Shown piece after piece: positions 9,661 to 33,681 of a stretch of 40,051 bases of DNA (positions are counted from its first letter, which is position 1; each line of letters starts with the position of its first letter). A program made the translations under genes and the position numbers. This stretch comes from Proteromonas lacertae (taxonomy: Eukaryota), in the NCBI GenBank assembly GCA_002245135.1, contig NGBS01001206.1:1-40051 (forward strand), read 5' to 3'. A model generated the notes under the pieces. That model was not told the DNA's origin. It made no database searches and saw nothing but the letters and a program-made list of their open reading frames with translations.

Positions 9661-9723
9661 TTTATGTGAAATTATTTATATATAAAAACGCATAGAAATA
9701 TAAAAATGAATTTTAAACCAAAG

Positions 9724-10797: not shown

Positions 10798-10943
10798 TCT
10801 TTTGAAATTATGATTGATAAAAAACAATAAGAAAAAGTTAAATGAAATTATATACAAAAAATCAAAAGAAAAATTTTAACCCATAAAATTACTCATACAC
10901 AAAAATATATAAAGAATTTTAAACTCACCAGCTTCCTCCAGTA

Positions 10944-10959
10944 TAACCCTAACCCTAAC
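10944..10959 (+). repeat. Short telomere-type repeat (TAACCC)2.7
   Basis: taaccctaaccctaac, i.e. TTAGGG units on the minus strand. Confidence 0.6.
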
Positions 10960-11280: not shown

Positions 11281-11823
11281 TATGTTGTGCGCCGTTTGTC
11301 ATATGACCAACCTCTGCAGTATACTATTTTGTTAATAAAAATAGTTTAAATATTTGTGCCGTTTGTTTTCTAGAACTTTTTAATCAAACTAAATTCATAT
11401 TTAGCTAATATAGACTAAAATACATTAGCTGAAATGATTAGAATAACTTAATGTTGATCATAAGACATTTAAATTAAAAAAAGAAAATATAGAATCAAGC
11501 CTCACTCAAGCCTATATTTTACATCTCATCTTTTATATAGAAGGATTTAATAATTCTTATATTCTAATCATTTCAGCTAATGTATATTAGTCTATATTAG
11601 CTAAATATGCATTTAGTTTGCTTCAAAAATTTCTAGAAAACAAATGGCGCAAATATTCAAACTATTTATATTAACAAAAAAGTATACTGCAGGGTTAGGT
11701 CATATAACAAAGTAAGTATAAAAGTAACAATTTTTCATCAAGACAAGTAAGAATATACATTTAGTTTGTTTTAAAAGTATCTGGTAGACAAACGGCCAAC
11801 TATGACAATCGGGGCACAACATA
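11281..11823. mobile_element. Foldback/MITE-like element, copy 1
   Basis: Termini tatgttgtgc...gcacaacata; inverted arms ~11281-11444 and ~11561-11823 around an asymmetric core containing tcaagcctcactcaagcc. Confidence 0.9.
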
Positions 11824-12128
11824 AGTAAATGGTATATTATTACTTAAACGATCTAATGGAATTACATTATCATTATATTTATATTGTTTAATTATCTTTT
11901 CCAATTGATCAGCATTTTGTAGATTGATTATAATCAATGAAAAATGTATATATATATATTAAAAATGGTTTGTCTGAATCTTTACTGGATAGAGGAGATT
12001 TAGTTATACCTTAAATCATTTCCTTAATTTACATTTGATATTAATCTTTTCATTTTTACTTATTCATCTTCTCCTTATAACAAATATTACAATATTTCGC
12101 TAGGATTATTTATAATATTTGTTATAAG

Positions 12129-13076
12129 ATAAATAAGTATTTTATATTATTCACCTTTCTTTTTCTTATTGTATTATTTATATTTAATAGTTATAGTCTT
12201 AATAAAAATAATGGATATAAATTCTTAAATAGCTACATTTATTTTACAAATAATAACCTATTTAATAATAGAATAAAATACATCCCTAAGAATTCATGTG
12301 GGTTAGGTAATAAGCTCTTAGGATTAATTAGTTCAATTGCATATGGAGTGTCTTATTCGTATTCATTGAAAGTACATAGTTGGGATAGTTTGTGGTGGTA
12401 TTTTAATTATCCTCTCAAAAATGATGAAACTCAATACATCTTTAATGTTACTTTTCACGGCCATTTTTATGGTATAAAAAGAGTAGTTACCGATGAAAAT
12501 ACAAGGAAATTTTTACTTAAGCAAGGAATAATAACATACAACCAAAATATCAATATTATGGTTAATAATCTTGCTTATAAAATATCATCACGTTTTTTAA
12601 CTGTATGTGATATAATTAAATCAAAAATAAAGCTAAATTATATACACAACATTATATATGGAGCTCATATAAGAACAGGAATGGCGGATGGTAAAGAATA
12701 TCTATTACATTATTTAAAATATAATGATATAATAAGTATATTAAATTTTATTTCCAAAAATATAAACAATCATAGCATTTATATAAGTACTGATTCTGTT
12801 GGTGTAAAAAATATGTACAAATCTATAATATCTAATATAATTTATTTAAATTCATCCACATGCAATTCTGGATATGGATTATTAAAAAATAATGACAAAT
12901 GTGCAATTGAAGCAATTATAGACTATTACATTTTAAGTAAATGTAATTATCTAATATTAACTAGATGTAGCTCTTTTAGTTTAATTAGTCTCTTTGCTAA
13001 TAAAATTGGATATAAAAATAAAAGAATGTATAAATACTTTGGTAATTGCTCATTGCATTCTGATTTGTTTAATTGA
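12129..13076 (+). CDS. NodZ/GT23-like alpha-fucosyltransferase (GT-B); apparent ATA start
   Basis: Frame is open from ATA at 12129 (INKYFILFTFLFLIVLF...). Motifs CGLGNKL, GAHIRTG, IYISTDS, DYYILSKC, SSFS. Confidence 0.75.
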   Translation: MNKYFILFTFLFLIVLFIFNSYSLNKNNGYKFLNSYIYFTNNNLFNNRIKYIPKNSCGLGNKLLGLISSIAYGVSYSYSLKVHSWDSLWWYFNYPLKNDETQYIFNVTFHGHFYGIKRVVTDENTRKFLLKQGIITYNQNINIMVNNLAYKISSRFLTVCDIIKSKIKLNYIHNIIYGAHIRTGMADGKEYLLHYLKYNDIISILNFISKNINNHSIYISTDSVGVKNMYKSIISNIIYLNSSTCNSGYGLLKNNDKCAIEAIIDYYILSKCNYLILTRCSSFSLISLFANKIGYKNKRMYKYFGNCSLHSDLFN

Positions 13077-13082
13077 TTAAAT

Positions 13083-14030
13083 ATGAAATTCAAATATTTA
13101 CTTCAAATATATATCATCTTATTATTTTATTTTCTTATTAATGCACAATATAATAATTATTTTAGAATATGTATATTTGGTATGGCGTTAGGTTTGCCTA
13201 TTGTTTCTATTAAAATATTTATAATTTCATTACAAAAGACTAATTTTAAAGGAATACTAATTCTGTTCATTTTCAACGAATCCTTATATAAATTTAGCAA
13301 ATATTCATACACTTTAAAAATTATAATAATTGAAAAAGATTGGCCATATTATTCTCTTCAAAACAAAGAATATTTTCTGAATAATAAATTCTTAAAATCA
13401 TGCATTATTTCATATAAATTTTATAGATACAAATGGAATATATATAGATTCAGTTTTATCGACTGTTGGTTGAAAAAATATAGTAATAAATTTGATTTTT
13501 ATTTTATTTTGGATGTTCGTGATACTATCTTTCAATTGAATATTGAATATTATAACTATGAAAACGCATTATATATAAGTCAAGATGCACGTTTTCCATT
13601 TAAAATTAAAGACGACTATGCAAATAAAAAATGGATGAATGACTATGAGAAAAATTCTATGCTAGAGTATAATATTCCGCTTAATTCAGGAACTATATAT
13701 GGATCAAAAGAATGTTTAACAGAATTTGTATCAATCTTTGTAAAATTTATTAAATCTAAGTATTTAAACACAGCTGAACAAGGTACATTGAATTATTTAT
13801 ATTATAGTGGAAAATTTAACTCTGTTAGGATAATTATAAATAAAAATGAAAGAGATATTATATATAATATGGGTATTGAAGTTATATACAAAAGTTACTT
13901 TATAAATAATAATTATATCATAAAGAATTTCACATTATATAGAAATCCCAATAAATCTGTTCCACATATTGTTCATCAGTATGATAGAGACAAGAATTAT
14001 TTCAATCTTCTAAAAGCTATATACACATAA
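13083..14030 (+). CDS. Putative GT-A nucleotide-sugar transferase
   Basis: FILDVRDTIFQ, LNSGTIYG, EQGTLNYLYY, IVHQYDR; N-terminal TM segment. Confidence 0.7.
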   Translation: MKFKYLLQIYIILLFYFLINAQYNNYFRICIFGMALGLPIVSIKIFIISLQKTNFKGILILFIFNESLYKFSKYSYTLKIIIIEKDWPYYSLQNKEYFLNNKFLKSCIISYKFYRYKWNIYRFSFIDCWLKKYSNKFDFYFILDVRDTIFQLNIEYYNYENALYISQDARFPFKIKDDYANKKWMNDYEKNSMLEYNIPLNSGTIYGSKECLTEFVSIFVKFIKSKYLNTAEQGTLNYLYYSGKFNSVRIIINKNERDIIYNMGIEVIYKSYFINNNYIIKNFTLYRNPNKSVPHIVHQYDRDKNYFNLLKAIYT

Positions 14031-14031
14031 C

Positions 14032-15180
14032 ATATTATATATTGTAATTTTATTTATTATAATTATTCTTAATTTTAATAAAAGCAATTTGTCAAATATA
14101 AGATATACAAATCCTCAACACATTATTCGTTTATCATTTCATTACTTAAGCAAATTAAAAAACCTAAAATGCAAAAATCGAAAGAATATCTTATGTATAG
14201 ATTTCAATAATCGTAGTATTAATAATGTTTATCATTTCGCAACTTTTAGAATTAATAAAACTTATAAATTTATTACAAGTAAAATAATAACTACCTCATA
14301 TGATATAAGAATTAATGAACATAATGCATCATTTAAAAGAATTATCTTCAGTTTAAATATCTATGGATTCAAGCATGCTTTATTATCCTATGAAGGAAGT
14401 ATTCATTCTCAATGTTGGGATTTAACAATAACAGGAGGATGCAAATGCTATAATATACCACATATTTATTTCAATGTGTCAAATAATTATAAATACGATA
14501 AAGTAATATCAATTAGTCACCATTGGGGAAATGCTGTCTTTCATTCAATTGTTGAATGTCTAACAAAAATAGGATTTTATATTCCATATTTAGTTGAAGA
14601 TCAGTCAATAAAAATACATACAATGAAATCTGCTAATATAAAGTATTTACATTTCCTAGGATTTAATGATTCAAGATTATTATATGGAAATATATATGCA
14701 AAAAGATTGTTAGTATTAGAAAAAGGTGGATGTGGATCAACTCCACCTTTAATTCATTTAATATACTTAAGGATTTACATAAGAAAAAGGATAAAAACTA
14801 AACCTATGTATGACATAGTACTAATCAAAAGATTTGGCATTAGAGAAGTGCTGAATTTTGAGGAAATATTAAATATTATAAGAGAAAAGTTCACATTCAA
14901 AAATATAACAATATTTTATCCTAATACTACTTTTATAAATACATTAAATTATTTTAAATACGCCAAATTAATTATTGCTCCTCATGGAGCTGGTTTATCA
15001 AATCTAATAGTTACAGAAAACTGTAAAGTTATAGAATTCCTTTACAAAAATTATTGTTATTCCTCATTAGCTAATAAACTAGGATTAGAATATTATGGAA
15101 TTAAAGAAAAGTTATATGAAGGAAAATTTAAAGTAAACATCTCATTATTTAAATATTTAATTGAAAATATTGACATATAA
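14032..15180 (+). CDS. GT61 (DUF563) glycosyltransferase; apparent ATA start
   Basis: GNAVFHSIVECL, IIAPHGAGLSNLI, VIEF. In-frame hydrophobic ILYIVILFIIIILN begins at ATA 14032. Confidence 0.8.
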   Translation: MLYIVILFIIIILNFNKSNLSNIRYTNPQHIIRLSFHYLSKLKNLKCKNRKNILCIDFNNRSINNVYHFATFRINKTYKFITSKIITTSYDIRINEHNASFKRIIFSLNIYGFKHALLSYEGSIHSQCWDLTITGGCKCYNIPHIYFNVSNNYKYDKVISISHHWGNAVFHSIVECLTKIGFYIPYLVEDQSIKIHTMKSANIKYLHFLGFNDSRLLYGNIYAKRLLVLEKGGCGSTPPLIHLIYLRIYIRKRIKTKPMYDIVLIKRFGIREVLNFEEILNIIREKFTFKNITIFYPNTTFINTLNYFKYAKLIIAPHGAGLSNLIVTENCKVIEFLYKNYCYSSLANKLGLEYYGIKEKLYEGKFKVNISLFKYLIENIDI

Positions 15181-16878
15181 ATGAAACAAAATGTTTATAT
15201 TCAAGAACTAAGAGGTATATCCATTGTTTTTATTATACTTTATCACTTTTTAAATGATTTCAAAACATTTGGATTTTTAAGTGTATCCATTTTTCTTCAA
15301 ATATCAGGATATATTATAACATATACTTCTCTTAGCAGGAAAAAAGCAATGAAAGATTTCTATTATAAAAGAATGATAAATATATTTCCTCAGTTACTTT
15401 TTACTATTACAATCATATTATATATATATAGAAATGAAAGTTATAATAGACTTAATATGCTTTATGATGAAACTATATCTACTATTGAAATAATATCAAA
15501 TATATATTATTACAAAAGAGAAATTAATTATTTTAGTCAATTTGATAATCCTTCAATTACTCTACATTTTTGGTACATTTCTCTTCAGCAACAAATATAT
15601 ATATTGTATCCATTCCTATTTATTCTTTATACTTATTGTCACATTATATTGTATTTGCTATTAATAGCAAGTATATCATTATTTTATTTATACTTAAATT
15701 CAGATCCATCATTTTCTTATTATATAATCTTGTGTAGATTATATGAATTTATAATTGGTATGCTATGCAATAATAAAACATATTCAGTTATTTTAAGATA
15801 TACTATTAGTGGTAATTTTATTGTTTATATTATTATACTAGTACAATTGCTAAATATTACTATTCAAAAGTTATATAAGTTTATCATAATAAATATATTA
15901 TCACTATTATTACTAAATAGTATGAATTTAAATTCATTGAATATAAACTTCATTCTAAATATTTCATTGTTATATAGAATTGGTAATTTATCTTATGAAA
16001 TATACCTTGTTCATTATCCATTGATTAATTTTTGCAATTCAAGCATTATAAAATATATCTTGTTAATTGCTATTTTGTCCTATATTCTTTCATTTACAAA
16101 AGTAATGAATGATAAATATAAGTTTCGAATTTCTTTGATTTTACCTGTGTTAATAATTTCATACATAATATATAAAAAGTCTATAAATAATTATAAATTT
16201 AAAGAGATTTTTAGCATTACTTTAAATGATATGAATAAAGAATATTTAAAGACTATGAAGTGTATAAAAAAATACTATCCTATACCAAAATTGCATAATA
16301 TTTGTTTAATGTTATTAGGTGATTCACATTTAGAACAGTGGTTTCCTTCAATTATAGATATTGCAAAATCAAAAAAATACTCAATTATATATATAAGGTT
16401 TAATGTTAGAGATATAGAGTTAGAAAAATTTCAAATTGTAAAAGATACTATTAATGAATATAAATATATCAGTATTATACCCATAATATCAATATATATG
16501 AATCATCAATGGATAAATAATTATTCACTATTTCATTATCACTTCAAGAAATATATAAAAATTCTGCTTAATCAAACATTGTTCATTTATATTATTGAAG
16601 ATATACCATACTTACATACCAATCCTTTAAATTGCCTATATTCTTTAAGTGAAATAGATAGATGTTATTCAATATTAGGAATAAATTCATCTATTGAATC
16701 AATACCATTTATAAAAAATAACAAATTACATTATTGTAATATGAATAAACATATTTGTGAAAAGAAAATAATACATTTTATTAGAAATGGTATAATAGTT
16801 TATAAAGATAGCAATCATTTGACTTTATCTTTTTCAAAGACATTAACTAACAACTTAAATAACTGTATGTTGCTATAA
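15181..16878 (+). CDS. OafA/OatA-type acyltransferase-3 plus SGNH O-acetyltransferase
   Basis: IQELRGISI..ILYH, FLQISGYIIT, HFWYISLQQQIY, SYEIYLVHYP, GDSH, DSNHL. Confidence 0.9.
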   Translation: MKQNVYIQELRGISIVFIILYHFLNDFKTFGFLSVSIFLQISGYIITYTSLSRKKAMKDFYYKRMINIFPQLLFTITIILYIYRNESYNRLNMLYDETISTIEIISNIYYYKREINYFSQFDNPSITLHFWYISLQQQIYILYPFLFILYTYCHIILYLLLIASISLFYLYLNSDPSFSYYIILCRLYEFIIGMLCNNKTYSVILRYTISGNFIVYIIILVQLLNITIQKLYKFIIINILSLLLLNSMNLNSLNINFILNISLLYRIGNLSYEIYLVHYPLINFCNSSIIKYILLIAILSYILSFTKVMNDKYKFRISLILPVLIISYIIYKKSINNYKFKEIFSITLNDMNKEYLKTMKCIKKYYPIPKLHNICLMLLGDSHLEQWFPSIIDIAKSKKYSIIYIRFNVRDIELEKFQIVKDTINEYKYISIIPIISIYMNHQWINNYSLFHYHFKKYIKILLNQTLFIYIIEDIPYLHTNPLNCLYSLSEIDRCYSILGINSSIESIPFIKNNKLHYCNMNKHICEKKIIHFIRNGIIVYKDSNHLTLSFSKTLTNNLNNCMLL

Positions 16879-16903
16879 TTAACAAATTGAAATGAATTGT
16901 AAA

Positions 16904-18414
16904 TTATTTTTTACAATTACATTTAATTTCCATTTTCATATCTTCACAGTTTAAATATTTTGATATTTCCTTTAGTATCGTATTTTCATTACTTCCAGTT
17001 AATCCTTCAGATATATATTTTAATGTAAAGAATAAATTAAACGGTGTAATATATCTATTTTGATTCTTCTTCAATATTGTGTATAAATTCTGATTTATTA
17101 GTTGTTTGTTTATAATCTATATATTTGAAGATATTAATTAATACTATAATCAGTGGCGGAAATGTGTTTTCTATTTCATTATAATACTTACCATAATGAA
17201 TTCCATGATCTCCAACAATAAATGTAATTAATTTATTTAATGTATTAGTTTCTATAGTTATATTATATTTTATACCATTTAGAATGCTAAAATAATTCTT
17301 TAACTCTTCATCAATACCTGCTACTGATAATTGTTTTGGCTAATTGTTTTATTATATAGGAGAATGATATACATCATGAGTCTCTGAAAAAGATGCAAAT
17401 GTAAAAGTAGAAACATTATGTTTGGCATAGTACATATGAGCTTTTTTCATGTATTTAAGAAACATATACGATATTCGTTTTCCATGTATACATCTTGGTC
17501 CAGTACCATATGCTCCTGTTTTGTTATAACTAATAATAATAAACTATAATATACTTATTAATTGAAGGATGACAAGCTAAATTTATGTTATGATCAGCGC
17601 CATATTTTACAGGCTTACCGTAATATTTTAAATTAATGTCACAGAATCCAGCTAAAGATAGTGTTTTATATCCATTATCATGATAGTAATTAAATAATGA
17701 CTTTTTCTAGAAAATTAAAAATATATACAACTGATTTAGTATTATTATTGTATTTTTCTCCATAGAATAATGGAATATAATTTGGTTTTGAATTAAGTCC
17801 AACAGTATGATATCTTAACATATCAAATATATAATAATTGCTTGATAGAGAAAGCAGGAATTTTTGTGTTTCGATAAACTGTTGATTAAAAGCCATTCTA
17901 GATAAACCATCAAATAGAAATAAATTTACAGAAATTCTATTATTTATGTGAATAATTCTTTGAGGAATAAAATGTAAAAATAAATAATTATTGCTATGTG
18001 ATTCATAATATTGTATTTCATAATCTAATATTCTGTTAATTACCTATTTCATAATAACAATTATACATAAGAGGTGGAATAGAAAAATCTAAAACTCTCT
18101 AATCTAATCCCATAAGTGGATGTATTGAATAAATATATTTTAAATTTGACTTTTGTTAAATTTGTAGTTCTATGTGTATTACTACAACTATACGGACTAT
18201 TCATTGGAAAATTCTCTTTTCTTGTATAGGAACAATTGATTTTGCATAAACTTTCACTATCTTCATATTTATTACTTGAAATCCAACTATAGCATAATGT
18301 ATTTTTCAAAGAAAAATAGTGTCTGCTTTCACTAGCACAAAATATATGAAACAATAGAAATAATATAAGAAATATAGTATAACTTATTATATAAAATGAT
18401 ATAATTTTCATCAT
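16904..18414 (-). CDS. DUF229 (alkaline phosphatase/sulfatase-like) protein with 5-6 tiny introns
   Basis: Splicing GT-AG introns 18044-18066, 17707-17728, 17530-17554, 17340-17372 and 17117-17144 (plus optional in-frame 17252-17275) gives one ORF. Motifs NLFLFDGLSRMAF, YHTVGLNSKPN, RCIHG, GDHG, NQNRYITPFN, C..CNC; stop at 16904-16906. Confidence 0.85.
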
Positions 18415-18463
18415 ACTATGCGTTTTTAATAATGGAATTAGTTTGTGACTTAATACAATAAAT

Positions 18464-19249
18464 ATGAAAGCTTTAATTATTATACTTACGATTAATTTAT
18501 TATCCTTTATATATATTATATATGTAATTTTTAAACATACAAATATGAAATTTAATAGATATCCCAATAAAGACTACATCACTCTAGTTCATGAATCATA
18601 TAATAATATTCCCGATTTGAACATAATGTTACAAAGTTTAAAAAATATATATACTAATGAATCTGTAGATTCATTCTACATTTTAGATTCTATTAGGTTA
18701 TTATCAAAGTCATTTAGAAGTCAAAAATATGCAAATATGTTATCCAAAAAGGATGGTGATATTTCTGCTTATTATGACCAAATGCTTATATATAGAAACG
18801 AAATAATCAACAGTAATAAAATATATACAATTAGAAATATATGCGAAATAGGATTTCAAGTCGGTATAGGATCTCTTACATTCCTTACATCTTTGAAACA
18901 TAATTTAGTCTATTATGGATTTGATTATGGTATGAATTATTCTAAATGTTGTTATAATATTATTTCTAATTATTTTAATATGAATATTATTTGGGGAAAA
19001 AGTGAAGAAACTGTGCCTCATTCTAAGAATATTGTGTGTGATATAATTCATATTGATGGTGATCACAAACAAATATCTATTTATAACGATATAATTAACA
19101 TGAAACAATTATCACATAGACATACACTTTTATTTTTGGATGATGTGAATATAGATAGTAATACAATAATTAAAGCAAAAAGAGATAGAATAATAGAAAA
19201 CATTAATTGCTTTAATTGGAAACCATTTTGTATATGTAACTATAACTAG
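18464..19249 (+). CDS. Class I SAM methyltransferase (Methyltransf_24-like)
   Basis: ICEIGFQVGIGS, GFD, WGKSEETVP, CDIIHIDGDH, FLDD; N-terminal TM segment. Confidence 0.85.
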   Translation: MKALIIILTINLLSFIYIIYVIFKHTNMKFNRYPNKDYITLVHESYNNIPDLNIMLQSLKNIYTNESVDSFYILDSIRLLSKSFRSQKYANMLSKKDGDISAYYDQMLIYRNEIINSNKIYTIRNICEIGFQVGIGSLTFLTSLKHNLVYYGFDYGMNYSKCCYNIISNYFNMNIIWGKSEETVPHSKNIVCDIIHIDGDHKQISIYNDIINMKQLSHRHTLLFLDDVNIDSNTIIKAKRDRIIENINCFNWKPFCICNYN

Positions 19250-19290
19250 CAAAGTTAATCAAGCTGATATAATTCTGCTATACAGTTTAA

Positions 19291-20238
19291 ATGAAAATAT
19301 CATGCATTTTAGCCACATTTATTATTATCTATTTCATTTTATATTGTTTTATGTATATATCATTATTAAATATGCTATATTTATTAAAAATAAAAGGTAT
19401 TTCACCAAAAACATATAAGAAGCTATTAACATATAATACTAGTATTTCTTTGTATCAAGTTAAAAGTGTTTTATATATTCAAAAGCCAATTCATAAAATT
19501 AAATACAATTCATTCATTGTTTTTGGTGTTACATCAACATCAGATTCATTTAACATTAGAATGGTTATTAGAAAGACATTAGGAAAACAAATGAAATATT
19601 ATAATTCATTGCTATTCTTCTTTATAGCAAATTCTAATGTAGATTATTATAATTATTTATTATCGATAGAAGTAAAGTTATACAATGACGTAATCCAATT
19701 ATCTCTATATGAGAGTTATTTAAATCTTACCATATTAACAATATGGATGATGAAATGGGTAGTTGATAATTGCAAATTTATATATCTTATAAAAAATGAT
19801 CAAGATGTTATTCCTAATATAAAACTAACATACATTTATTTACTATCATTAATAAATACAACTTGCTCTTATGGAATTTTAAGTAAAAACGAAGTAGTAT
19901 GCAGAAATAAAAATTCAGTACATTATATCCCTTATTATTCATACAAGAAAAACAATCTACCTTCATATATATTTGGATATTTTGCAATTTATAATTATAT
20001 ACTTATAAACTATATTAACAATATTTCTTTTACTGTATATCCAATAATATACAAAGAAGATGTTCATATTGGTTTATTGACTTCAAAAAGCAATTATTCT
20101 TTCTGCAAAATAAGGCATAAAATAGTGAGTAAAATAAAAGAAAATAATGTTACAAATATAGATAATAACACTATATCAATCCATGGAGTAAATTATATCA
20201 ATTATCTAAAACTGTATAAGTTAATAAATGGTATGTAG
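19291..20238 (+). CDS. GT31 beta-1,3-galactosyltransferase-like
   Basis: RMVIRKTLG, EVKLYNDVIQ, ESYLNLT, KNDQDV, EDVHIG. Confidence 0.85.
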   Translation: MKISCILATFIIIYFILYCFMYISLLNMLYLLKIKGISPKTYKKLLTYNTSISLYQVKSVLYIQKPIHKIKYNSFIVFGVTSTSDSFNIRMVIRKTLGKQMKYYNSLLFFFIANSNVDYYNYLLSIEVKLYNDVIQLSLYESYLNLTILTIWMMKWVVDNCKFIYLIKNDQDVIPNIKLTYIYLLSLINTTCSYGILSKNEVVCRNKNSVHYIPYYSYKKNNLPSYIFGYFAIYNYILINYINNISFTVYPIIYKEDVHIGLLTSKSNYSFCKIRHKIVSKIKENNVTNIDNNTISIHGVNYINYLKLYKLINGM

Positions 20239-20251
20239 TATATAAATTGCA

Positions 20252-21967: not shown

Positions 21968-22071
21968 ACTTTTAGAAGTTGAATGAAGTATTTACTTATA
22001 ATAGGTAAATATTTAAATGTAAATGATATATATATAAAAGAATAACAGCAAATCCTATAAAAATACTGAAT

Positions 22072-22911: not shown

Positions 22912-23040
22912 TATAGTTTAATCAATATATTGTTTGATTTATATTAAATACAAGCTTTTAATAGAAATACGTTATTATACTAAATTCTTTTAATATAAAT
23001 TTTAGTATTATACTTTACAATTAATTAGCATTTTATAAAT

Positions 23041-23994
23041 CTAGATATAAATACATTTTACATTTGATCTAGAACAAGACAAATTATAATAAGTACTTAA
23101 ATGTGATCCTATAGCTATGTCACATTGTGATATTAAATAATTATCAGCTAACAGTTTAATCCCACTTTCATAACTTCCTCCATGCATTGACCCATGTGGA
23201 TCTATTATAGGTCCTGGTATTGTGTAATTTAATACATAATCGTTAAATAGTTTATTAACTTTCTTAATAATCATATTAGAATCTGATATAATAAGCAATT
23301 TATAGTGATTAAATTGATTTAATAATTTATTAATAGATATTAAATACTTGTTAAATACTTTCGGTGAGTACCATATCGATGTTTTTGATAAATCTAATAG
23401 AAATCCAGTTCTAATATGCACCCCTATTACCGTTGATTTATATTTTAGTCTAATGAATTTTATGATATATTTAGCTACTCTATCACATGGCTGAAAAAAT
23501 ACATTTTGAATTAAGATATTCCACTCTTTTATATTTATTTTAGTAAATTTTATTAACTTTGATTCACGATATAGAGTATATACCACATTCATGAACCCAT
23601 GTAGTTTATATATAGATATTCTGCTGTAAGAATCTAATAGAGTTTTAATTGTATTGTTGACAAATCTAATCTCGATTGTATTTGTTATACTTATATTGTT
23701 ATTTAACATATATGATGGCATTTTGAAGTACAATATCATTTCTTTCCATCCAAAAATAAAAAAAGTGGATGAAGATACTAAGGACAAAAATATGCTGGAT
23801 ATTATTGTGGGAATTTTATTTCCCAGTCCACATTGAACCATAGTTTTATATATAACTAAATTCTTCCTTTTATGGTGGTTGTTGTTATATATCATTTTCT
23901 CTATTTTTCTTTCTGAGTAATTGAGAAGATTTACTTTTCTTATCATAGTAATCAATGATAATATAAATAATATTGAATAATTAATTATAGTCAT
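23041..23994 (-). CDS. NodZ/GT23-like alpha-fucosyltransferase
   Basis: CGLGNKIP, IGVHIRTG, LIISDS, DNYLISQCD, STYY. Confidence 0.8.
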   Translation of the reverse strand: MTIINYSILFILSLITMIRKVNLLNYSERKIEKMIYNNNHHKRKNLVIYKTMVQCGLGNKIPTIISSIFLSLVSSSTFFIFGWKEMILYFKMPSYMLNNNISITNTIEIRFVNNTIKTLLDSYSRISIYKLHGFMNVVYTLYRESKLIKFTKINIKEWNILIQNVFFQPCDRVAKYIIKFIRLKYKSTVIGVHIRTGFLLDLSKTSIWYSPKVFNKYLISINKLLNQFNHYKLLIISDSNMIIKKVNKLFNDYVLNYTIPGPIIDPHGSMHGGSYESGIKLLADNYLISQCDIAIGSHLSTYYNLSCSRSNVKCIYI

Positions 23995-24088
23995 GTTCTA
24001 TCTGATTAGACTTAAACAAATATTAGTACATATGGTGTGTATAGACAACCTAATGAGAAATATGCTTTTTAGAAAACGAGTAATATCC

Positions 24089-24492
24089 AAAACAAACTCG
24101 ATGCATATTCTTACTTGTCTTGATGAAATAATGTTACTTTTATACTTACTTTGTTATATGACCTTACCTCTGCAGTATACTATTTTGTTAATATAAATAG
24201 TTTGAATATTTGTGCCGTTTGTTTTCTAGAAATTTTTGAAGCAAACTAAATGCATATTTAGTTAATATAGACTAAAATATATTAGCTGAAATGATTAGAA
24301 TAACTTAATGTTGATCATAAGACATTTAAAATGAAAAAAGAAAATATAGAAACAAGCCTCACTCAAGCCTATTTTTTACATGTCTTCTTTTATATAGAAG
24401 GATTTAATAATTATTACATTCTAATCATTTCAACTAATGCATTTTAGTTTATTTTAGCTAAATATGAATTTAGTTTGCTTCAAAAATTTCTA
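24089..24492. mobile_element. Foldback/MITE-like element, copy 2 (both termini truncated)
   Basis: Same arm and core sequence as 11281-11823; the core is in the same + orientation. Confidence 0.9.
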
Positions 24493-24539
24493 CTATTTAT
24501 ATTTAGTGGATAAGTAATTTATCTATCTTAATGAGAATC

Positions 24540-25560
24540 CTGTAACACCGTTTGCCAGATTGCTTATATGAGAATCCTGGTGATAGCCTACAATGCCAAA
24601 GTCCGATGAGAAGTTCCTTAGCATATCAATCTTATGATTGTACTTCATCGATAGCTACTGCTTCATGTCCTCTAGCTTAGAGTCTATTACAGAATGTTAA
24701 CATCGGCAAGCAGTCCAGCCCAGGGATTTCAAGAAGTACTTTGCTCCGGTGTTCTACGTGATGAACCAGATCAAGAGATATGATAAAAAGTTGATCAAGA
24801 CTTACTTCATGCAGAAGAACTACTTCCTTTGCTAGTACTGCGATGACTTAGCCAAGTATGATCTAACCGGAACCCTCCGAGGATGACATTACGGAAGTTC
24901 TCAAAGACACTTGCATGTATCAGAACAATTACGATCCATCGGAGCCTTCTACTTATATCATGTACAATGACTACAATAGCTTATACTCATTCACGATGTC
25001 CTCCAGCAAGTTACCTTGCGGAGATTTCAAGTTCATTGCCAGGACCGATGAAATTATTCAAGACATCCTCTCGAAACCTTATTACGATGACATGTCTATG
25101 AAGGAGTTCAATGAGCCAGGTAAAGGATACTTCCTCGAAGTCGATATCGAGTGTCGGAGAGAGCTTCATGATAAGTTCAAGGAGTATCCTTTGTTCCCAG
25201 AACGAAACACAATCGCTTACGATCAGCTATCACAGGTCATGAAGGTAAAGACCGAGAAGTTGATCTGTGATCTCACCACTAAGAAGAATTATAAAATCCA
25301 AGGTGTCCATCGTGTGTTGGGGTTCACCGAAGAACCTCTGATAAAGAGCTTTGTGGATGATATGATCTGATACCGAGTAGATTCAAAGAAGAGCAATCGT
25401 ACAACATATAGTGATACTTATAAGCTATTGTTGAACTCCATCTATGGCAAGAGCTGTGAGTGTAAGGAACGACTTGAAGTTACTTATGACTGATACTGAC
25501 TCCTTGCTTTACAAGTGTCAGACTAAAGACATCTATCAAGATGGACACTGGCATGTTGAG
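24540..25560 (+). pseudogene. Protein-primed DNA polymerase B remnant (Polinton/adintovirus type), internally deleted
   Basis: YFIDSYCFMSSSLES (24641), YDPSEPSTYIMYNDYNSLY (motif A, ~24969), GYFLEVD, KLLLNSIYGK (25422-25451, after an in-frame TGA), LMTDTDS (DTDS at 25492-25503, shifted frame). Confidence 0.9.
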
Positions 25561-25818
25561 CTTATTAAGAGTGAAGAGAACAAGAACGGTAAGCTTCATC
25601 GATTGTATCGATGAAGCTCCCGTAAAGGTCAACTCTGGATCTAGAAGGGGAAGGATCTCCCGTAAATGTCACAAGTAGATCAATTATCTAGCAATCTTCT
25701 CGGTAATGAGGAGTGGTCGTAAGAAGGAATTGGAGGATCACATATGAAGTAAGGAGATGTCAACAACCTTCAAGGCCTAGGAGTGAACCAGATAATGAAG
25801 TTACCACGATAACCGGCA

Positions 25819-26256
25819 CTAACGAGTTATAAGATCCTTAAATAGATCAATAGACGTCAAAGGCCAGACTTCTTTTTCTAGCTTACATGGTAACGTAATG
25901 TCTGTGATCACCTTCAGCATTTGATTCTTAGGAAGATAAAGCTTCTCCGAGTCCAGGATATGAATAACTTCATCGGTGTAGTTGATCAAGTAGTTAGTTG
26001 CCTTAAGGTACTCATCCAGGGAGATTGTCTTGTCCTTGAAGAGCATCGTATGATCGTGTTGAAGCATCTTCTCATAAGCCTTTAGTTCAACAGCCAGGTG
26101 ATTAGCAGCTTTACTAAGTTGTCTTAGGGAAGTGATGACCTTACTCTTCTTAATTAAAGCAGCACTGATCGCTTGTTGAATTCCATCTATTTCACCTACC
26201 TTGGGTTTCTGTTGCTTTGCTTTCAACGTGGATGATGATCTTCTCTTAAGCTTCAT
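25819..26256 (-). CDS. Hypothetical protein of the GC-richer viral element; possibly truncated by premature stops
   Basis: Likely ATG at 26256 (MKLKRRSSST...). Coding-like sequence continues past the TAG in the same frame. Confidence 0.5.
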   Translation of the reverse strand: MKLKRRSSSTLKAKQQKPKVGEIDGIQQAISAALIKKSKVITSLRQLSKAANHLAVELKAYEKMLQHDHTMLFKDKTISLDEYLKATNYLINYTDEVIHILDSEKLYLPKNQMLKVITDITLPCKLEKEVWPLTSIDLFKDLITR

Positions 26257-26388
26257 GAGATCAAAAGAGTGATGAGTTGTATTAGTCAAGATTACTAGGA
26301 AAATGAAAACTACAATAAGGCCAAGGAAATTACCCTTAATGCCGGACAATGTATGACAATCATAGAGAGCCCGTAGGCAGTAGGCCTG

Positions 26389-26446
26389 TAGGAGGAATCC
26401 CGTAGGCACCTTACGTAAATGGGACTATGCGACATTATCATAGAGT
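26389..26446 (+). repeat. 58-bp dispersed repeat, copy 2
   Basis: 55/58 identical to 1197-1254; sits at the transition from GC-richer to AT-richer DNA. Confidence 0.95.
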
Positions 26447-26719
26447 TTTAACGAGTGTCCTAGGAGTCCGTCCACTTCATACTTTTAATCTTTCATTTGA
26501 TATACCTTGATTTTGATAATAACCAATACTAATTATTTCATAATAGAAATGATAAACGCCATCATTCTGTTTCATTTCTTCTTTTATAATAAAAATATTT
26601 TATTATTGTATAAAGTATAAACATAACCTTCTTCATTATTAACAATACTTTTAAATTGTTCATTTGAGCTTCAATATTAACAATACTATACACCATATCA
26701 ACACAAGAATGCAATCAAA

Positions 26720-27412
26720 ATGGACAACTACGTGAAAAGTTCACAACAAACAATTCCAAGTTCACTCACTAATTTTGGTAGAGCAGTGAGTAATTTAGAT
26801 CAAGCAAAACAACTCAGTGAAGCTATGAGTTACTTTGGAATAGGTAATGGAAATAATAAAAAAGTAAAGAAATTAATTTCACGTAGGAAAGTTTTGTATA
26901 ACAGTATCACTTCAGATGCCTTATCGAACTTTGATATAGAGTTAATTGTGAAAAATGAGTTCAATAATTTCCATGGAAAGTTCATGGGAGTGTTCTGCTG
27001 GGACGAGCTTGTACTTCCTATACCCAAAAAGAAGAATCAATGGGGAATCATAATCAATACACTCACCACACAAGCTAGCCCTGATTCTATAGGTCATTGG
27101 GTGGCCTTAGTAGTTGACAATATCAAGAAGCAATTCCTGTACTATGATTCATTTGGTGAAGATCCTCAACACTTGGAAGAATTTAAAAAGAATTTGAAAA
27201 AATTAAAGAAGTATCATAATGAAAAGTATGAACTTAAAATCAATGGAGTACAGAATCAAAATTCAAATACTGCCAACTGTGGTTTTTTTGCTATTAATTT
27301 TTTGAAAAATATTTTAAGAGATCAGTGTAGTTTCAAAAAGGCTACTGACTATAATACAATAGTGGGTGAAACAAAAATTAGGTTAATGAAAAAACAATTT
27401 GGATTAATATAA
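26720..27412 (+). CDS. Adenain/Ulp1-like cysteine protease (Polinton/virophage maturation-protease type)
   Basis: FMGVF..D, IINT, GHWVAL, YYDSFG, Q...ANCGFF: His-Asp-Cys triad intact. Confidence 0.9.
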   Translation: MDNYVKSSQQTIPSSLTNFGRAVSNLDQAKQLSEAMSYFGIGNGNNKKVKKLISRRKVLYNSITSDALSNFDIELIVKNEFNNFHGKFMGVFCWDELVLPIPKKKNQWGIIINTLTTQASPDSIGHWVALVVDNIKKQFLYYDSFGEDPQHLEEFKKNLKKLKKYHNEKYELKINGVQNQNSNTANCGFFAINFLKNILRDQCSFKKATDYNTIVGETKIRLMKKQFGLI

Positions 27413-27444
27413 TATATAAAATTATTACTTAATTATTATTTTTT

Positions 27445-27852
27445 TTATGTGTGGTGAAATATTGTATGAGTTTCAATATATTCTATCATCTCTGTATCCA
27501 TATGAGTACATTTGAAGAATATTGGCATCTTGCCATTAAAACATCTTTGTGGCATTCTAATGATTACTTTTTTCATTGTTGGTGTGTATGTAACTTTCGG
27601 ATAATCTCTATTTCCTAAGTCACAAGGACCTACAAACACTAATATCAAACGTTGACTCATGATCATGTTAATCATTTTGTGTGTTAACTCAAAATACCAT
27701 TGATATATAGGTTTTCGATGATAAAAAAATATAAGGAATTGTAGGCTATACAAATCCAAGTATATGTCTGGACCGCTTAAATGATATTTCTTTGTTACCT
27801 TGGATTCAAGTTCTGGTAATTTATATTCAATCTGTGGTGGTAGTGTAAGCAT
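27445..27852 (-). CDS. Hypothetical protein
   Basis: 135-aa ATG ORF, convergent with the protease. Confidence 0.55.
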   Translation of the reverse strand: MLTLPPQIEYKLPELESKVTKKYHLSGPDIYLDLYSLQFLIFFYHRKPIYQWYFELTHKMINMIMSQRLILVFVGPCDLGNRDYPKVTYTPTMKKVIIRMPQRCFNGKMPIFFKCTHMDTEMIEYIETHTIFHHT

Positions 27853-27924
27853 ATATAAAAAAAATAGAATATACTATATGTATATGTATAATAAAATATT
27901 TAAAAAAAAGAAATTCAAAAAAAA

Positions 27925-28011
27925 TGGGATTACTAATAGTCTGTGCTAGGAATCGAACCACTAATGCCAGCTGCATGACTCTTTTTTCCTTGCACAGTCT
28001 ATCAGATCCCA
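27925..28011 (-). ncRNA. Candidate structured small RNA (terminal stem, B-box, oligo-T)
   Basis: Minus strand TGGGAT-CTGATAG-a-CTGTGC-a-AGGAA...GGTTCGATTCCT-a-GCACAG-a-CTATTAG-ta-ATCCCA, followed by T8. Confidence 0.4.
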
Positions 28012-28259
28012 ATTAAATAAAAAAAGGGCATTTAGATATACAGTGCCAGGATGATTCAAGCCGAATTTCAATGGCGCAATATTAAACAACACATCCAAGT
28101 AGAAATTATTAAACTTCCATAAATTCCTTGTGAAATTAATTTAATAAATAAATAAATAATTATAAATTAGAAACGCAGCCCTCATCGTAGCTAGTCTATC
28201 CAATGCCCAATAATAAAAAAACAGCATATACAATATATAGCATAATAAAAATTTATTCG

Positions 28260-29546
28260 TTACAATATTGATTTGTCTCCCTTCTTTCTCTTGGGTCTCT
28301 CCAGTATTTTTCTAAACCATGTGGTTGGTGCATCATCTTTTCTCACTAACTGCAACTCATAGTGTTTGAATCGAATTAATGAAAAACCTTGAATGTCATT
28401 CCCATTGATATCACCTAAATTGTATGAATATCGATTTTTCTTGATTATCTTATATACATTGTCTGACCAGTATATGTTCTTATCCATTTTACGTCTTCTC
28501 TCTTTGAATCTCACCAAATCACCTACTTCGAAATTTTGACCAGTATGATCCAATTTTTCATAATTCTTTAAGTTGTAGTTAATTGATTTTTGTAATATTT
28601 GTTTTTGTAATTCTGGACTATGGAATACCTCATTTGGGGTATATCCTTTAATTCCTGGTAATGGCTTGTTGTTATAGTCATCTATCACTTCCTGTATTAT
28701 ACTATCAAGTTTCAATTTATAATTCATATCTGGTATAATATGCTTATCATTGTGATCAATATCTGCCATATATGTAGGTGCATCATATCCCAGATCCACC
28801 AAGTGTTTGTACAACAATCTTTTTATCACACTCACTGATCTATCCAACAATGACTCTATTTTATGCTCTGAACCATCTTTTTGAAAATATGATATTCCTT
28901 CAGCATCACATAACTTCTTGATATTTGAAAAACTAGCATCAGCATCTGATAGGATACTTACCACATTTTTATGTGTTTTGTTTCCATAGGCATCTGTTTC
29001 ATAATACCACTTCTGAAATGCATCCAATGTAATATCACCATATTTATTAGGCATAAATATTGCCCATACTTTTCTTGAATTCATTTCGATAAAATACAAA
29101 TGTTCCATATCAGGTAAGAAAAACACTATATCCATTTGGAAGTACCCAGGCTTTTTGATAGTTGCGAATGGATTATTTTTTTTATATTTGAAATCGACAA
29201 TTTGTTTTCCAGGTTGTCTCCTTAAGTATTCACGTACTACATCTGGTGGTGGAGCTATATCATTCATACTAGACAAATGTTGTGTCATTTTGACAAATTC
29301 ATTTTCATTAAGGTAATAATATTTTTTATATAGTTCATCTAAGCGTGATCGATATTGGGCAATTTGGTTTGACATTTGGTCTTCATAAGAAGCCTCTCTT
29401 GTTGGATGTGTAATATTCGGTGCTCCATGGTTAATATATGTTGCAAGTGATAAGTTACCATTTGTAGGTAACGGTTTGACAGGATATGGGTTCTCGTTGC
29501 TATATGAGCTGTATAAATGTGGATCGTAACTATTAGTGCTAAACAT
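28260..29546 (-). CDS. Retroviral-like (rve) integrase of Polinton/virophage type
   Basis: PGYFQMDIVF, ILSDADASF, LLDRSVSVIKRLL, YNNKP..GYTPNEV, FEVGDLVR, WSDNVYKI, FKHYELQLV; ATG at 29546. Confidence 0.9.
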   Translation of the reverse strand: MFSTNSYDPHLYSSYSNENPYPVKPLPTNGNLSLATYINHGAPNITHPTREASYEDQMSNQIAQYRSRLDELYKKYYYLNENEFVKMTQHLSSMNDIAPPPDVVREYLRRQPGKQIVDFKYKKNNPFATIKKPGYFQMDIVFFLPDMEHLYFIEMNSRKVWAIFMPNKYGDITLDAFQKWYYETDAYGNKTHKNVVSILSDADASFSNIKKLCDAEGISYFQKDGSEHKIESLLDRSVSVIKRLLYKHLVDLGYDAPTYMADIDHNDKHIIPDMNYKLKLDSIIQEVIDDYNNKPLPGIKGYTPNEVFHSPELQKQILQKSINYNLKNYEKLDHTGQNFEVGDLVRFKERRRKMDKNIYWSDNVYKIIKKNRYSYNLGDINGNDIQGFSLIRFKHYELQLVRKDDAPTTWFRKILERPKRKKGDKSIL

Positions 29547-29709
29547 ATGGTCCAAAAACAAAAAACAAAAGTAATAATGAAATTCATTTCATTATGATTA
29601 TTATCTAAATTAATAGAGTTATATGTCTTTATAACAACATTTAAAAAAATATATATACATATAACATTTGTTCATTGTTCAACGTTATTTCCATTTCAAT
29701 TCACTTATT

Positions 29710-30518
29710 ATGAGCAACTGGAAGATACTATACAAAAACAGCTTCATTAATGATCCAAATCCGAGCATATATAAAATTTTATGTGAGAATTTTAAGACGA
29801 TTGTAGAACATGAGAAAGATTTGCAACGTTATAGGTATATTATATTATTATATGTCTATAGCTGGAATGGTAACTTCAGTATAAGGCGTTTTCACTACAT
29901 GGTACAAAAGATTCACAGAAATTGAAAAGATTGATGATCGACATGAAAGATTAAAAATGTCCAGAGTGTTGATGTCTGTCCTGCTATGTAATATCATGTA
30001 TAAAGAGGATCTGGACAAAAGCATCGTATATCTATTTAATATATATTTCAATTTTGAATCAATAGTATGATCGTATGCTTGACCATGCAATGGAGGATAT
30101 GATAGAACTGACTTGTATGTATATCATACATTTCGGTGACAACGATTTAGCAAAATGCGAAAAAGAAGAAAACAAGAATTCGAAAGGAGATATTGTTTAC
30201 AGAAGTACGGCTGAAAGTATAGTAAGTAGTAAAGTCTCTATAGCATCGTTGTTTGATAATCTGGATGATGATGATTATAATGATGATGATGACAACAACA
30301 ACAAGTTGTTAAAGGTGGCATCCACAAAAAGAAAGTGCAGTACATCTAAAGCTCCAAGATTTAAAAGAAAGAAAATAAATCAAAAAAACATTTCAACCAA
30401 AAACCAAAAACAAGAAGATAGTACTACAGAGGAAGATGATGATGATGATGATAATAACTTCTCACAATATATAGTAGATGATGATGATGAGGAGCCAGAG
30501 TACCAAAATGATTATTAA
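29710..30518 (+). pseudogene. Spliced orphan gene with acidic/basic C-terminus; one frameshift and one premature stop
   Basis: Candidate introns 29835-29861 (27 nt) and 30026-30065 (40 nt) join exons in frame to ORF 30075-30518. TAA at 29882; frameshift near 29810. Confidence 0.5.
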
Positions 30519-30696
30519 TCTCTGGTCCTAATTGGTTCAAATGATAGATTGTGTTTGTGTGGGAGTGTTGTTTTCATAATTTACATAATTAATTAGCATT
30601 ATAACAAGTCTTATAAGAAATATCAATAATAGAAAAATAGATGCGTTTCGAGATTTGACTTGAACTCTATTTTTTTTTGTTTTGTTTTTTTATTAC

Positions 30697-30748
30697 ATAG
30701 GATGGTCACTATATGGTGTCATATCACACCATGTGTTGACCATCCTAT
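30697..30748. other. ~23-bp imperfect hairpin
   Basis: ataggatggtca-ct-atatggtgt-catatc-acaccatgt-gt-tgaccatcctat. Confidence 0.85.
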
Positions 30749-30947
30749 TGAGATTGTTTTTATTGAATTATTTTTTGAAATTATATGTCATTCACTTTCT
30801 ATAATTTGAACTAACAACATAAATAGATTCATCATAAGATGAGGATTCAAATGGAATAATTATTTTTGTTTAAATTCAAACAGAAAAGCGAAAAAATAAT
30901 GTAAGCTTGAATTATGATTTGATTATGAAACGGACAAAAAACCATAG

Positions 30948-30976
30948 GGGGCTAGAGCACACTGTGCTCTAGCCCC
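30948..30976. other. Perfect 14-bp GC-rich inverted repeat overlapping a stop codon
   Basis: ggggctagagcaca-c-tgtgctctagcccc; the TAG of ORF 30969-31202 lies within it. Confidence 0.9.
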
Positions 30977-31290
30977 TTTCTTTCATTATTATAACTCTCC
31001 ACTCTTCTATTAAACAAAATAATTCATACTCTTCTATTTCTACAAACTTTCTGAGCAACACCATTTCTAAGTCTTCTGAATCTTGTTGCGGTGCTAACTT
31101 ACCAAAGAAAGTTTCTTCGTTTATAATATCTGCATATCTTGAACTTATATGAATAAACCAACTTTTGATCAGGTATAGCTTTTCAACATCAAAGTATAAC
31201 ACAACAAGGGTTGTTCATCAGTTCCATCGATCAAAGAACGAAGCATACTTTGAATATATCAGATGCTTCTATACCTTAACATCACTCCCA
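30969..31290 (-). pseudogene. Orphan ORF remnant
   Basis: The 77-aa ORF extends upstream in frame as FYGSDVKV*KHLIYSKYASFFDRWN**TTLVVLYFD. Confidence 0.4.
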
Positions 31291-31369
31291 TAAAACACTA
31301 TTAAAAAATTCCTTAAGAAATATATCAAGTAGTTTCACATCATCAATATGTAGTATGCATAGTTAAAGA

Positions 31370-32337
31370 TTAAATGGTTCTTATTTTAATGCACTTATTT
31401 TTACTCCTTAAACATGCCAAACTAAAATATGTGCTTGATCTACAACCTATCAATATATTACATTCAGATAAAATATAATTTTCTGATATTAGCCGGATGA
31501 CACATTCATTTCTTTTAAGTTTTCCGTGCATAAAATTGCTTGCATGGCATATATCACCTGGAATAGAATAATTAATTATATTCTTATTATATTTTAGTTT
31601 AAAATATCTCAATATTATTGAAGAATCTGATATAATGAATAACTTATAATTCTTATTATAATCTAAAATTTCATTTATCACTTTTGTATATAATGAAATA
31701 CTGTTGTTATTAAAAAAAATTGTATTCTTTTCTCCAAAATCTGATAAATACCCCGTTCGTATATGAACTCCAACAACAATTGCTCTCTTAAGCAATAATT
31801 TAAATCCTTTAATATATTTTGATATATACTTTGTAGGTATTAAAAATGTATGATGTAAAAACATTTCTAATGGCATATTAAGCTTATTTATTACAGGGAA
31901 TATAGTTTTTAGTTGTAGAGAATAATTAAAATATTGAAGAACGAGTGATGTAAAACTGTGATAAATAAATATTTTGATAGTTATATTCTTGTTTATTAGT
32001 TTGAGATTAGTTAAATTCTTTTTATTAAATGTGTAAAACTTAGTTGAATTACATTTTGAAAGAAAAATTGATAAAGGAAATTTGAAATAATTTAAAATCT
32101 CATACCAGTTAACTATATATAAGGATGATAACTAACTAATGATAGCAAGATACTACTAGTTAATGTAGGTATTTTATTTGCAAAACCACATCCCTTGTAA
32201 GGAGAGAATAAAATAAGAGATGTATATTTAATTTTATTAATTTTCATGAACTCATTCCAATAATATGTTTCATAATTGTTTTTATTATAATAAATTATAT
32301 ATAATAAAAGTATCAATTCTATAAATACTAACATCAT
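31370..32337 (-). pseudogene. Third NodZ/GT23-like fucosyltransferase, with a single 1-nt frameshift near 32120
   Basis: CGFANKIPT in ORF 32113-32337. Adding one base joins it to ORF 31370-31876 (VGVHIRTG, FIISDS, ENYILSEC, STYF). Clear paralog of 23041-23994. Confidence 0.8.
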
Positions 32338-32612
32338 AATGTTTTAGCAGCTTAAATAATTTAGAAAAAAGAGTCACCCATATAAATACTAACATGCAGA
32401 GAAATCTAACGGTTGAAAATGGTTATACTTCTAAGAAGTAAACTTACAAAATGAATATCATCTATTTGAATTTTCGATGATATGTCCTCCAAACATTTTA
32501 ACCATATATTTGAGCCAATTATTTTAACAACTCAACCAGGCTATGTTATATCACTTAACCATAGACTTGATGAGTCTATGCTGCATACGTAGCTTATCGA
32601 GAATATATCATT

Positions 32613-33681
32613 AATTGAAATTTATTTTTGTAATTTAGAATATTTTATAAATTTGTTGATTTAAATTGATTTTATTTCTTCTTTCATCTATATAACTTGT
32701 TTATAAACACTATTACACAAAAATAAATAAAATAGTTAACTTCTTACATAATTCAACACAAATAATACATAAAATGATTGGTTAATTCTTTTATCTCTAC
32801 ACCTGCACGAATATCTCGTCGTGCTATTGGTGTTTTTATAATTAAAAAAGAATAAGATGTTGCGCGCCGTTTGTCATAGTTGGTCGTTTGTCTACCAGAC
32901 ATTTTTAAAACAAACTAAATGTATATTCTTACTTGTTATATAACCTACCTCTGCAGTATACTTTCTTGTTAATATAAATAGCTTGAATATTTGCGCCGTT
33001 TGTTTTCTTGAAATTTTTGAAGCAAACTATATGTATATTTAGCTAATATAGACTAAAATACATTAGCTGAAATAATTAGAATGTAATAATTAGAATAACT
33101 TAATGTTGATCATAAGACATTTAAAATGAAAAAAGAAAATATAGAATCAAGCCTCACTCAAGCCAATATTTTACATTTCTTTTTTATATAGAAAGAATTA
33201 ATAATTATTACATTCTAATTATTTCAGCTAATGTATTTTAGTCTATATTAGCTAAATATACATATAGTTTGCTTCAAAAATTTCAAGAAACAAACGGCGC
33301 AAATATTCAAGCTATTTATATTAACAAGAAAGTATACTGCAGAGGTAGGTTATATAACAAGTAAGAATATACATTTAGTTTTGTTTTAAAAATGTCTGGT
33401 AGACAAACGACCAACTATGACAAACGGCGCGCAACATCTTATTCTTTTTTAATTATAAAAACACCAATAGCACGACGAGATATTCATGCAGGTGTAGAGA
33501 TAAAAGAATTAACCAATCATTTTATGTATTATTTGTGTTGAATTATGTAAGAAGTTAACTATTTTTATTTATTTTTGTGTAATAGTGTTTATAAACAAGT
33601 TATATAGATGAAAGAGAAATAAAATCAATTTAAATCAACAAATTTTATAAATATTCTAAATTACAAAAATAAATTTCAATT
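32613..33681. repeat. 1069-bp palindrome (~480-bp arms, 109-bp spacer)
   Basis: 32613-33092 is the reverse complement of 33202-33681 apart from a few differences, mostly homopolymer indels. Confidence 0.95.
32858..33436. mobile_element. Foldback/MITE-like element, copy 3 (centre of the palindrome)
   Basis: Termini tgttgcgcgccgtttgtcata...tatgacaaacggcgcgcaaca; same core as copies 1 and 2. Confidence 0.9.

Follow-up and report, generated by a model that had tools for sequence, protein, structure and literature searches.

Hairpin-forming repeats upstream of fucosyltransferase-like genes in Proteromonas lacertae: most likely foldback elements among other transposon debris

Introduction

What are the long hairpin-forming repeats that stand 5' of three fucosyltransferase-like genes in a 40,051-nt stretch of the genome of the eukaryote Proteromonas lacertae (contig NGBS01001206.1 of assembly GCA_002245135.1, positions 1 to 40,051; the whole of this stretch is referred to below as the window)? 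A preliminary description, made from the letters of the sequence, had noted that every foldback element sits just 5' of such a gene and proposed that these elements act as an invertible switch for glycan loci, with targeted insertion as a fallback. In the analysis described here the switch is unsupported, and a foldback element lying among other transposon debris is the most likely explanation. More specifically, the three repeats are probably copies of one discrete, non-autonomous DNA transposon of the foldback type, i.e. an element with long terminal inverted repeats that resembles a MITE, a transposable element of the miniature inverted-repeat type.

Structure of the foldback repeats

Three homologous foldback repeats of ∼550 bases occur in the window, at 11281-11823 (copy 1), 24079-24503 (copy 2) and 32609-33685 (copy 3), which is where the preliminary description had placed them, and their overall identity to one another is 82-93% (blastn). 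The element is a discrete unit of ∼540-580 bp with sharp ends (ATGTTGYGCGCCGTTTGTCATAG and its inverse) that are identical in copies 1 and 3; the flanks of these copies cannot be aligned. Most of the unit consists of two arms, 165-484 bp long, that enclose an asymmetric non-coding core of 109-116 bp. Each arm is composed of two or three tandem subrepeats of ∼112-148 bp, every one of them headed by GCCGTTTGT, and direct repeats are found inside the arms at spacings of 112 and 148 nt. When up to one mismatch was allowed, GCCGTTTGT was matched 11 times in the 40 kb and all 11 matches fell inside foldback copies (1.4 expected). A very stable hairpin was predicted by folding for every copy.

The direction of the core can be read from two motifs, each occurring three times in the window and always on the + strand (0 expected). 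All three cores of ∼110 bp therefore point in the + direction, as first described. Identity between copies is 92.7-94.5% in the core and 89-95% in the arms, so that conservation of the core does not exceed that of the arms around it. A short open reading frame (ORF) in the core is not conserved either (its ATG is absent from copy 1 and copy 3 has a 1-nt deletion), and the core is not a gene. Rfam, tRNA and tandem-repeat scans of the foldbacks returned nothing.

Copy 1 retains both termini and is made up of a left arm (11281-11445), the core (11446-11559, +) and a right arm (11560-11823). Its arms are 89-93% complementary, with an internal deletion of ∼100 nt in the left one, and folding of the copy as single-stranded DNA gave −146.7 kcal/mol (z −25.9). 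Copy 2, with its core at 24302-24417 (+), is a relic that lacks both termini: the left end is missing or diverged, and the right arm, which carries a 26-bp internal deletion, stops at ∼24503 where the guanine-cytosine (GC) content rises. A short sequence just beyond this cut end (24546-24562) reads CCGTTTG and then CCAGAT, much like the outermost subrepeat of the arm, perhaps by chance or as a further fragment. A 36-bp arm insert, to which the preliminary description had drawn attention, occurs on the right in copy 1 and on the left in copy 2, but its placement is uninformative because the opposite arm is deleted (copy 1) or cut (copy 2) at that place.

Copy 3 is the largest, a palindrome of 1077 bp in which an inner unit (32857-33437), with its core at 33093-33201 (+), matches copy 1. 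Complementarity is 100% over the innermost 89 bp and 97% over the following 196 bp. The outer arms, 248 bp each (32609-32856 and 33438-33685), lie outside the unit and constitute an inverted duplicate of one flank; they have no homology to the right flank of copy 1.

A weak fourth relic of the core was detected at 7138-7223 (−), with 75.6% identity over 82 nt (blastn E 5e-6; nhmmer E 0.002). It comprises the right half of the core and the start of an arm, lacks arms as such, and is oriented opposite to the three copies. It directly follows an ORF of a GC-richer island, 3' of two convergent ORFs, and no fucosyltransferase-like gene adjoins it. The claim that every foldback stands 5' of such a gene thus applies to the three full copies, with this weak relic as a departure from it. 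The ORF at 7223-7867 had no usable match in the protein atlas.

Proposed origin of the copies

If the repeats are a foldback transposon, the unit would have inserted, or been tolerated, where blocks of glycan genes meet mobile-DNA debris and the otherwise tight packing leaves a few loose spacers. A transposase encoded elsewhere may have bound the repeated GCCGTTTGT sites and moved the unit in trans. The outer arms of copy 3 could have been added after insertion by hairpin (snap-back) repair, in which one flank was copied in inverted form and the neighbouring hAT transposase gene was cut; such a repair event would also explain why that gene is cut exactly at the edge of the palindrome. The core could also be flipped by arm-to-arm recombination, which would be a by-product of the long inverted repeats and not a regulated switch. 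The part of the preliminary fallback that spoke of insertion thus agrees with our best explanation, in which the inserted unit is a mobile element; targeting to the fucosyltransferase-like genes is one of the rivals considered below.

Position relative to the fucosyltransferase-like genes

The three genes in question are FucT1 (12129-13076, +), FucT2 (23041-23994, −) and FucT3 (31370-32337, −). FucT2, a frame of 317 amino acids with its ATG at 23994, is the sole intact gene of the three. The frame of FucT1 is open from 12084 and has an ATA at 12129, where the membrane anchor would be expected to start, and its first in-frame ATG is not reached until 12558; FucT3 has an ATG at 32337 and one frameshift near 32140. 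Two of the three frames (FucT1, without a start codon, and FucT3, frameshifted) are thus broken as far as the assembled sequence can tell. The frames of the 13 other genes in the AT-rich blocks of the window are unbroken.

The fucosyltransferase label itself is reasonable but weak. Matches of the three frames to Pfam NodZ and O-FucT remained below the cut-offs (E 7e-5 to 0.007), and a profile of the family matched NodZ at E 0.001. In a Foldseek search with a model of FucT2 the ten best matches were all to NodZ, FUT8 or POFUT1, from a model with a mean pLDDT (predicted local distance difference test) of only 51.6. The paralogues are 20-35% identical in protein, and the family is almost an orphan: one relative of FucT2, at 60% identity, was found among 5.8 billion proteins, and none in viral contigs or prokaryote genomes.

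Copy 1 lies 305 bp from the FucT1 frame (to 12129), the distance originally given; copies 2 and 3 were measured at 84 bp from the ATG of FucT2 (23994) and 271 bp from that of FucT3 (32337), slightly less than the earlier figures of ∼95 and ∼275 bp. To gauge how often such an arrangement would arise by chance, insertions were modelled on our own gene map, with the ORFs of GC-richer islands taken as genes, which leaves 14,253 non-coding bases, 930 of them within 310 bp 5' of a FucT frame. Three random non-coding insertions would all fall within such a zone with P ∼3e-4, or one in each of the three zones with P ∼6e-5, and a count based on the 16 gaps of at least 200 bp gave 1/560; all of these figures are nominal, being post hoc, dependent on the gene map and drawn from three copies in one window, whose independence of each other is unclear.

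The foldbacks are ∼93% alike in DNA as against the 20-35% protein identity of the FucT paralogues, and were therefore not co-duplicated with these genes. They would appear to have arrived long after the duplication of FucT, unless gene conversion maintains their likeness. A plain reading of the adjacency is available, namely that insertions were tolerated only at the edges of gene blocks and beside redundant paralogues, two of them already broken; tolerance of this kind beside decaying genes, or chance, may account for the position of the copies.

Mobile-DNA debris beside the copies

The AT-rich gene blocks of the window (∼20-26% GC), in which reading frames are uninterrupted and tightly packed, are split by GC-richer islands (30-45% GC) with broken frames, at 1-2000, ∼7200-10800 and ∼24600-31300. 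At every foldback copy, mobile-DNA debris is found on the side away from FucT. Debris of several kinds accompanies the copies; with the foldbacks included, the loose gaps of the locus are occupied by four or more classes of repeated or mobile DNA.

To the right of copy 2, the region 24504-31300 (30-43% GC) is, by its gene remnants, a putative decayed element of the Polinton/Maverick or virophage type. Polintons/Mavericks are defined, in the abstract of PMC5499653, by a protein-primed B-family polymerase together with a retrovirus-like integrase. Two weak collinear fragments of a protein-primed polymerase lie within 24867-25490 (+), at E 0.005 and 0.012, both below the cut-off. They are followed by a C48/C5 cysteine protease at 26720-27412 (+), above its Pfam cut-off, and by an ORF of 428 amino acids at 28260-29546 (−) that we assign to the rve integrase family: rve was found in 10 of the 18 homologues scanned (E ≤1e-3), four of them above the cut-off, and the nearest named clusters in the protein atlas were Preplasmiviricota. 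The scans of this relic yielded neither a capsid gene nor an ATPase, and terminal (inverted) repeats were likewise not found; its integrase had no relatives in viral contigs, and its protease had no match among phage records.

Two further observations concern the same island. A stretch of 58 bp at 26389-26446 recurs with 95% identity at 1197-1254, both occurrences lying in islands of ∼41% GC, and the two are probably relics of one element. Near the right end of the island, a GC-rich perfect hairpin (30948-30976) gives way to a T-rich run; another palindrome, of 52 bp, occupies 30697-30748.

To the right of copy 3, and beginning ∼5 bp or less from its edge, lies a frameshifted relic of the C-terminal part of a hAT transposase (33690-34502, +). 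The Dimer_Tnp_hAT domain was matched at 34281-34499 with E 5e-6 and a score of 26.6 bits, the cut-off being 21.4 bits. The C-terminus of the Hermes transposase also matched, weakly but in register. A search for other hAT fragments in the window (tblastx, cut-off E 1) gave four chance-level matches only (E 0.34-0.89). A candidate N-terminal hAT block to the left of copy 3 (32470-32592), suggested by motifs only, had no Pfam match and was dropped.

The island to the left of copy 1 has fragments, here called seg, in common with the region to the right of copy 3. They form four collinear pieces at 9896-10536 (+) with 83-89% identity and are mirrored at 34862-35086; loci 1 and 3 thus share one order (seg, foldback, FucT), each as the mirror image of the other. 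At 9896-10536 seg overlaps the ORFs at 9724-10320 (zinc-ribbon-like) and 10447-10857. The same island contains a telomere-like repeat of two CCCTAA units at 10947-10958; one match of this kind was seen in 4 of 100 shuffles.

Weighing of the explanations

Several points weigh against a foldback transposon. At none of the copies was a target-site duplication seen: direct repeats are lacking in the flanks of copy 1, those of copy 3 are mutually inverted, and copy 2 lacks its ends. This is the main weakness of the interpretation, and it keeps alive the alternative that the repeats are products of rearrangement or the ends of other elements. No autonomous partner linked to the unit was found in the window, the nearby hAT relic and rve integrase being unlinked to it. 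Searches for other copies of the core or arms returned 0 in viral contigs, metagenome contigs and prokaryote genomes, and mobility therefore rests on three copies in one window. The position of all three full copies 5' of FucT frames is nominally unlikely to have arisen by chance. Lastly, seg, foldback and FucT are mirrored between loci 1 and 3 while the core keeps one absolute orientation, and it is therefore reversed with respect to its flanks. An inversion would explain this as well; so, in half of all cases, would insertions that took place independently and in either orientation.

According to the first alternative, the repeats are not mobile in their own right; the palindromes would be end leftovers of larger hAT-like or Polinton-like elements, or products of inverted duplication or repair, and would have been spread by rearrangement and gene conversion. 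The absence of a target-site duplication is consistent with this, as are the enclosure of copy 3 in a larger palindrome, the relic of a larger element that abuts each copy, the fourth core fragment immediately after an island ORF, the confinement of all copies to 22 kb, and the partial subterminal motif just past copy 2, at 24548. Copies 1 and 3, however, have the same ends within unrelated flanks, and no arm-like sequence was found at the far ends of the Polinton-like and hAT relics. Furthermore, each element has both arms around a single core, and not just one terminal repeat. We feel that an origin of this kind is unlikely.

A second alternative accepts that the repeats are mobile and makes them targeted or domesticated cis-elements, which either prefer the region upstream of FucT or were retained there because the arms act on the neighbouring gene whichever way the core points; they might, for instance, serve as a portable promoter or an insulator, or supply hairpin RNA for silencing. 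The three full copies are all located 5' of members of one gene family (nominal P 1e-3 to 1e-4), and all fold into a very stable hairpin. Copy 2 is 84 bp from the ATG of the intact FucT2, and the promoter of this gene must therefore be very short or lie within the arm. Set against this, the three insertion flanks have no sequence in common, and no motif stands out in the upstream regions or was seen in the arms. Moreover, FucT1 and FucT3 are broken, the fourth relic is away from FucT, and the sample is a single window. Targeting or domestication at FucT thus seems improbable.

In the switch first proposed, the arms would recombine and thereby invert a promoter inside the core of 110 bp, and the neighbouring FucT genes would phase-vary as a result. 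The repeats would then be flip-flop control elements outside bacteria, directed to the 5' ends of FucT genes or retained there, with core flips that vary surface fucosylation from cell to cell, and the mirrored order of seg, foldback and FucT at loci 1 and 3, with its unflipped core, would be an inversion fossil. The location of the three full copies 5' of FucT frames, nominally non-random, is what such a switch would lead one to expect, and core orientation relative to the gene is indeed different in copy 1 from that in copies 2 and 3, in agreement with the preliminary description. Long inverted arms would also permit inversion by homologous recombination.

A number of observations argue the other way. 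No tyrosine or serine recombinase was detected in Pfam scans of ORF translations from the window (sets of 22, 24, 16 and 140, a few of them scanned repeatedly), although one could be encoded elsewhere in the genome. The arms, at 165-484 bp and built from subrepeats, are like transposon ends and unlike short recombinase sites; the core, at 92.7-94.5% identity against 89-95% in the arms, has no extra conservation and is 308-756 bp from the reading frames, which implies long leaders. FucT1 has no start codon, FucT3 is frameshifted, and copy 2 is a cut relic. Sites that vary between arms tell no coherent story of inversion, since at two of them the left arm of copy 1 agrees with that of copy 2, and at one a left arm agrees with a right arm. 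A sigma-70 scan, which addresses a bacterial-type promoter that may not be the host's, gave 141 sites where 160 were expected, and the sigma-70/terminator scan showed no enrichment; a giant-virus early promoter motif was not enriched upstream of genes, and a k-mer search of gene upstream regions yielded nothing robust. With long subrepeat arms, no recombinase found in the window, an unexceptional core and two of the three neighbouring genes broken, an invertible switch at this locus is very improbable.

Other features of the window

The sequence is very compact (∼22% GC), with gene spacers of down to 0-140 bp. Taken together with the Polinton-like relic, such a layout would suit either a protist genome or that of a giant virus. 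Glycan-modifying genes are the majority in the AT-rich blocks and comprise a GT92, two FkbM methyltransferases, a GT61, a GT31 and two AT3-SGNH acyltransferases. The extreme packing is illustrated by a divergent pair (5371-6129, −, and 6153-6995, +) whose start codons are 23 bp apart, and by the GT61 gene and the next acyltransferase, with 0 bp between them. Eight relatives of the GT92 gene (2102-3259) were found at E ≤1e-10, all on short contigs from read assemblies.

Two gene pieces are isolated in non-coding gaps and are likely pseudogenes: a DUF229 piece at 17690-18043 (−; E 1.4e-8) and a GT31 galactosyltransferase piece at 35260-35598 (+; E 5.5e-14). Rfam and tRNA scans of the window gave no match.

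Comparison with known systems

If the repeats are a foldback family and nothing else, they are a routine addition to the catalogue of mobile DNA, useful for annotation, and the locus illustrates how a cluster of glycan genes is broken up by hairpin elements and by the relics of a hAT and of a Polinton-like element. The residual interest lies in the placement of all three full copies 5' of one almost orphan gene family. Targeting or inversion, if true, would place the locus among the rare examples outside bacteria in which repeats drive variation of surface glycans.

The invertible capsule promoters of Bacteroides and fimS of E. coli are flanked by short inverted repeats and flipped by a dedicated site-specific recombinase. 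The locus described here is similar in that a segment flanked by inverted repeats lies upstream of glycan-modifying genes, with an orientation relative to the gene that differs between loci. It differs in its arms, which are hundreds of bp of subrepeats, in the lack of a recombinase within the window, and in the broken state of two of the three genes.

Like the Ac/Ds elements of the hAT superfamily, the unit has a short GC-containing motif repeated in both subterminal regions, and a hAT relic abuts copy 3. The hexamer at the centre of GCCGTTTGT is the reverse complement of the subterminal site to which the Ac transposase of maize binds. Unlike in hAT elements, no 8-bp target duplication was found, the ends of the unit differ from the usual hAT ends, and the relic has no foldback-like terminus downstream. 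A hAT-type partner for the foldback unit is a lead only.

The MITEs and similar repeats of giant viruses (Submariner of Pandoravirus, M1 and M2 of Pithovirus, and the arrays of Sissivirus) are likewise short, non-coding, hairpin-forming and intergenic in AT-rich, compact genomes. According to the Sissivirus preprint, its repeats are tandem arrays of hairpins of 22-40 bp, and the palindromic repeats of Pithovirus are ∼140 nt. The window, in contrast, holds three dispersed units of ∼550 bp with a loop of 110 bp, for which viral contigs offered no match. The Sissivirus hairpin arrays were considered as a source or analogue and dropped, being a different kind of repeat.

In anatomy, the unit matches the foldback elements of animals, such as FB of Drosophila and Galileo, a member of the P superfamily, which are also variable, carry arm deletions and are tied to rearrangements. 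Tetris, and Tm1 of root-knot nematodes (Mutator/Foldback), are further animal foldbacks. The element described here departs from them in being only ∼0.55 kb long, in residing in a very compact host sequence of ∼22% GC, and in having neither a target duplication nor a linked transposase; the likeness to the animal foldbacks considered here is one of anatomy.

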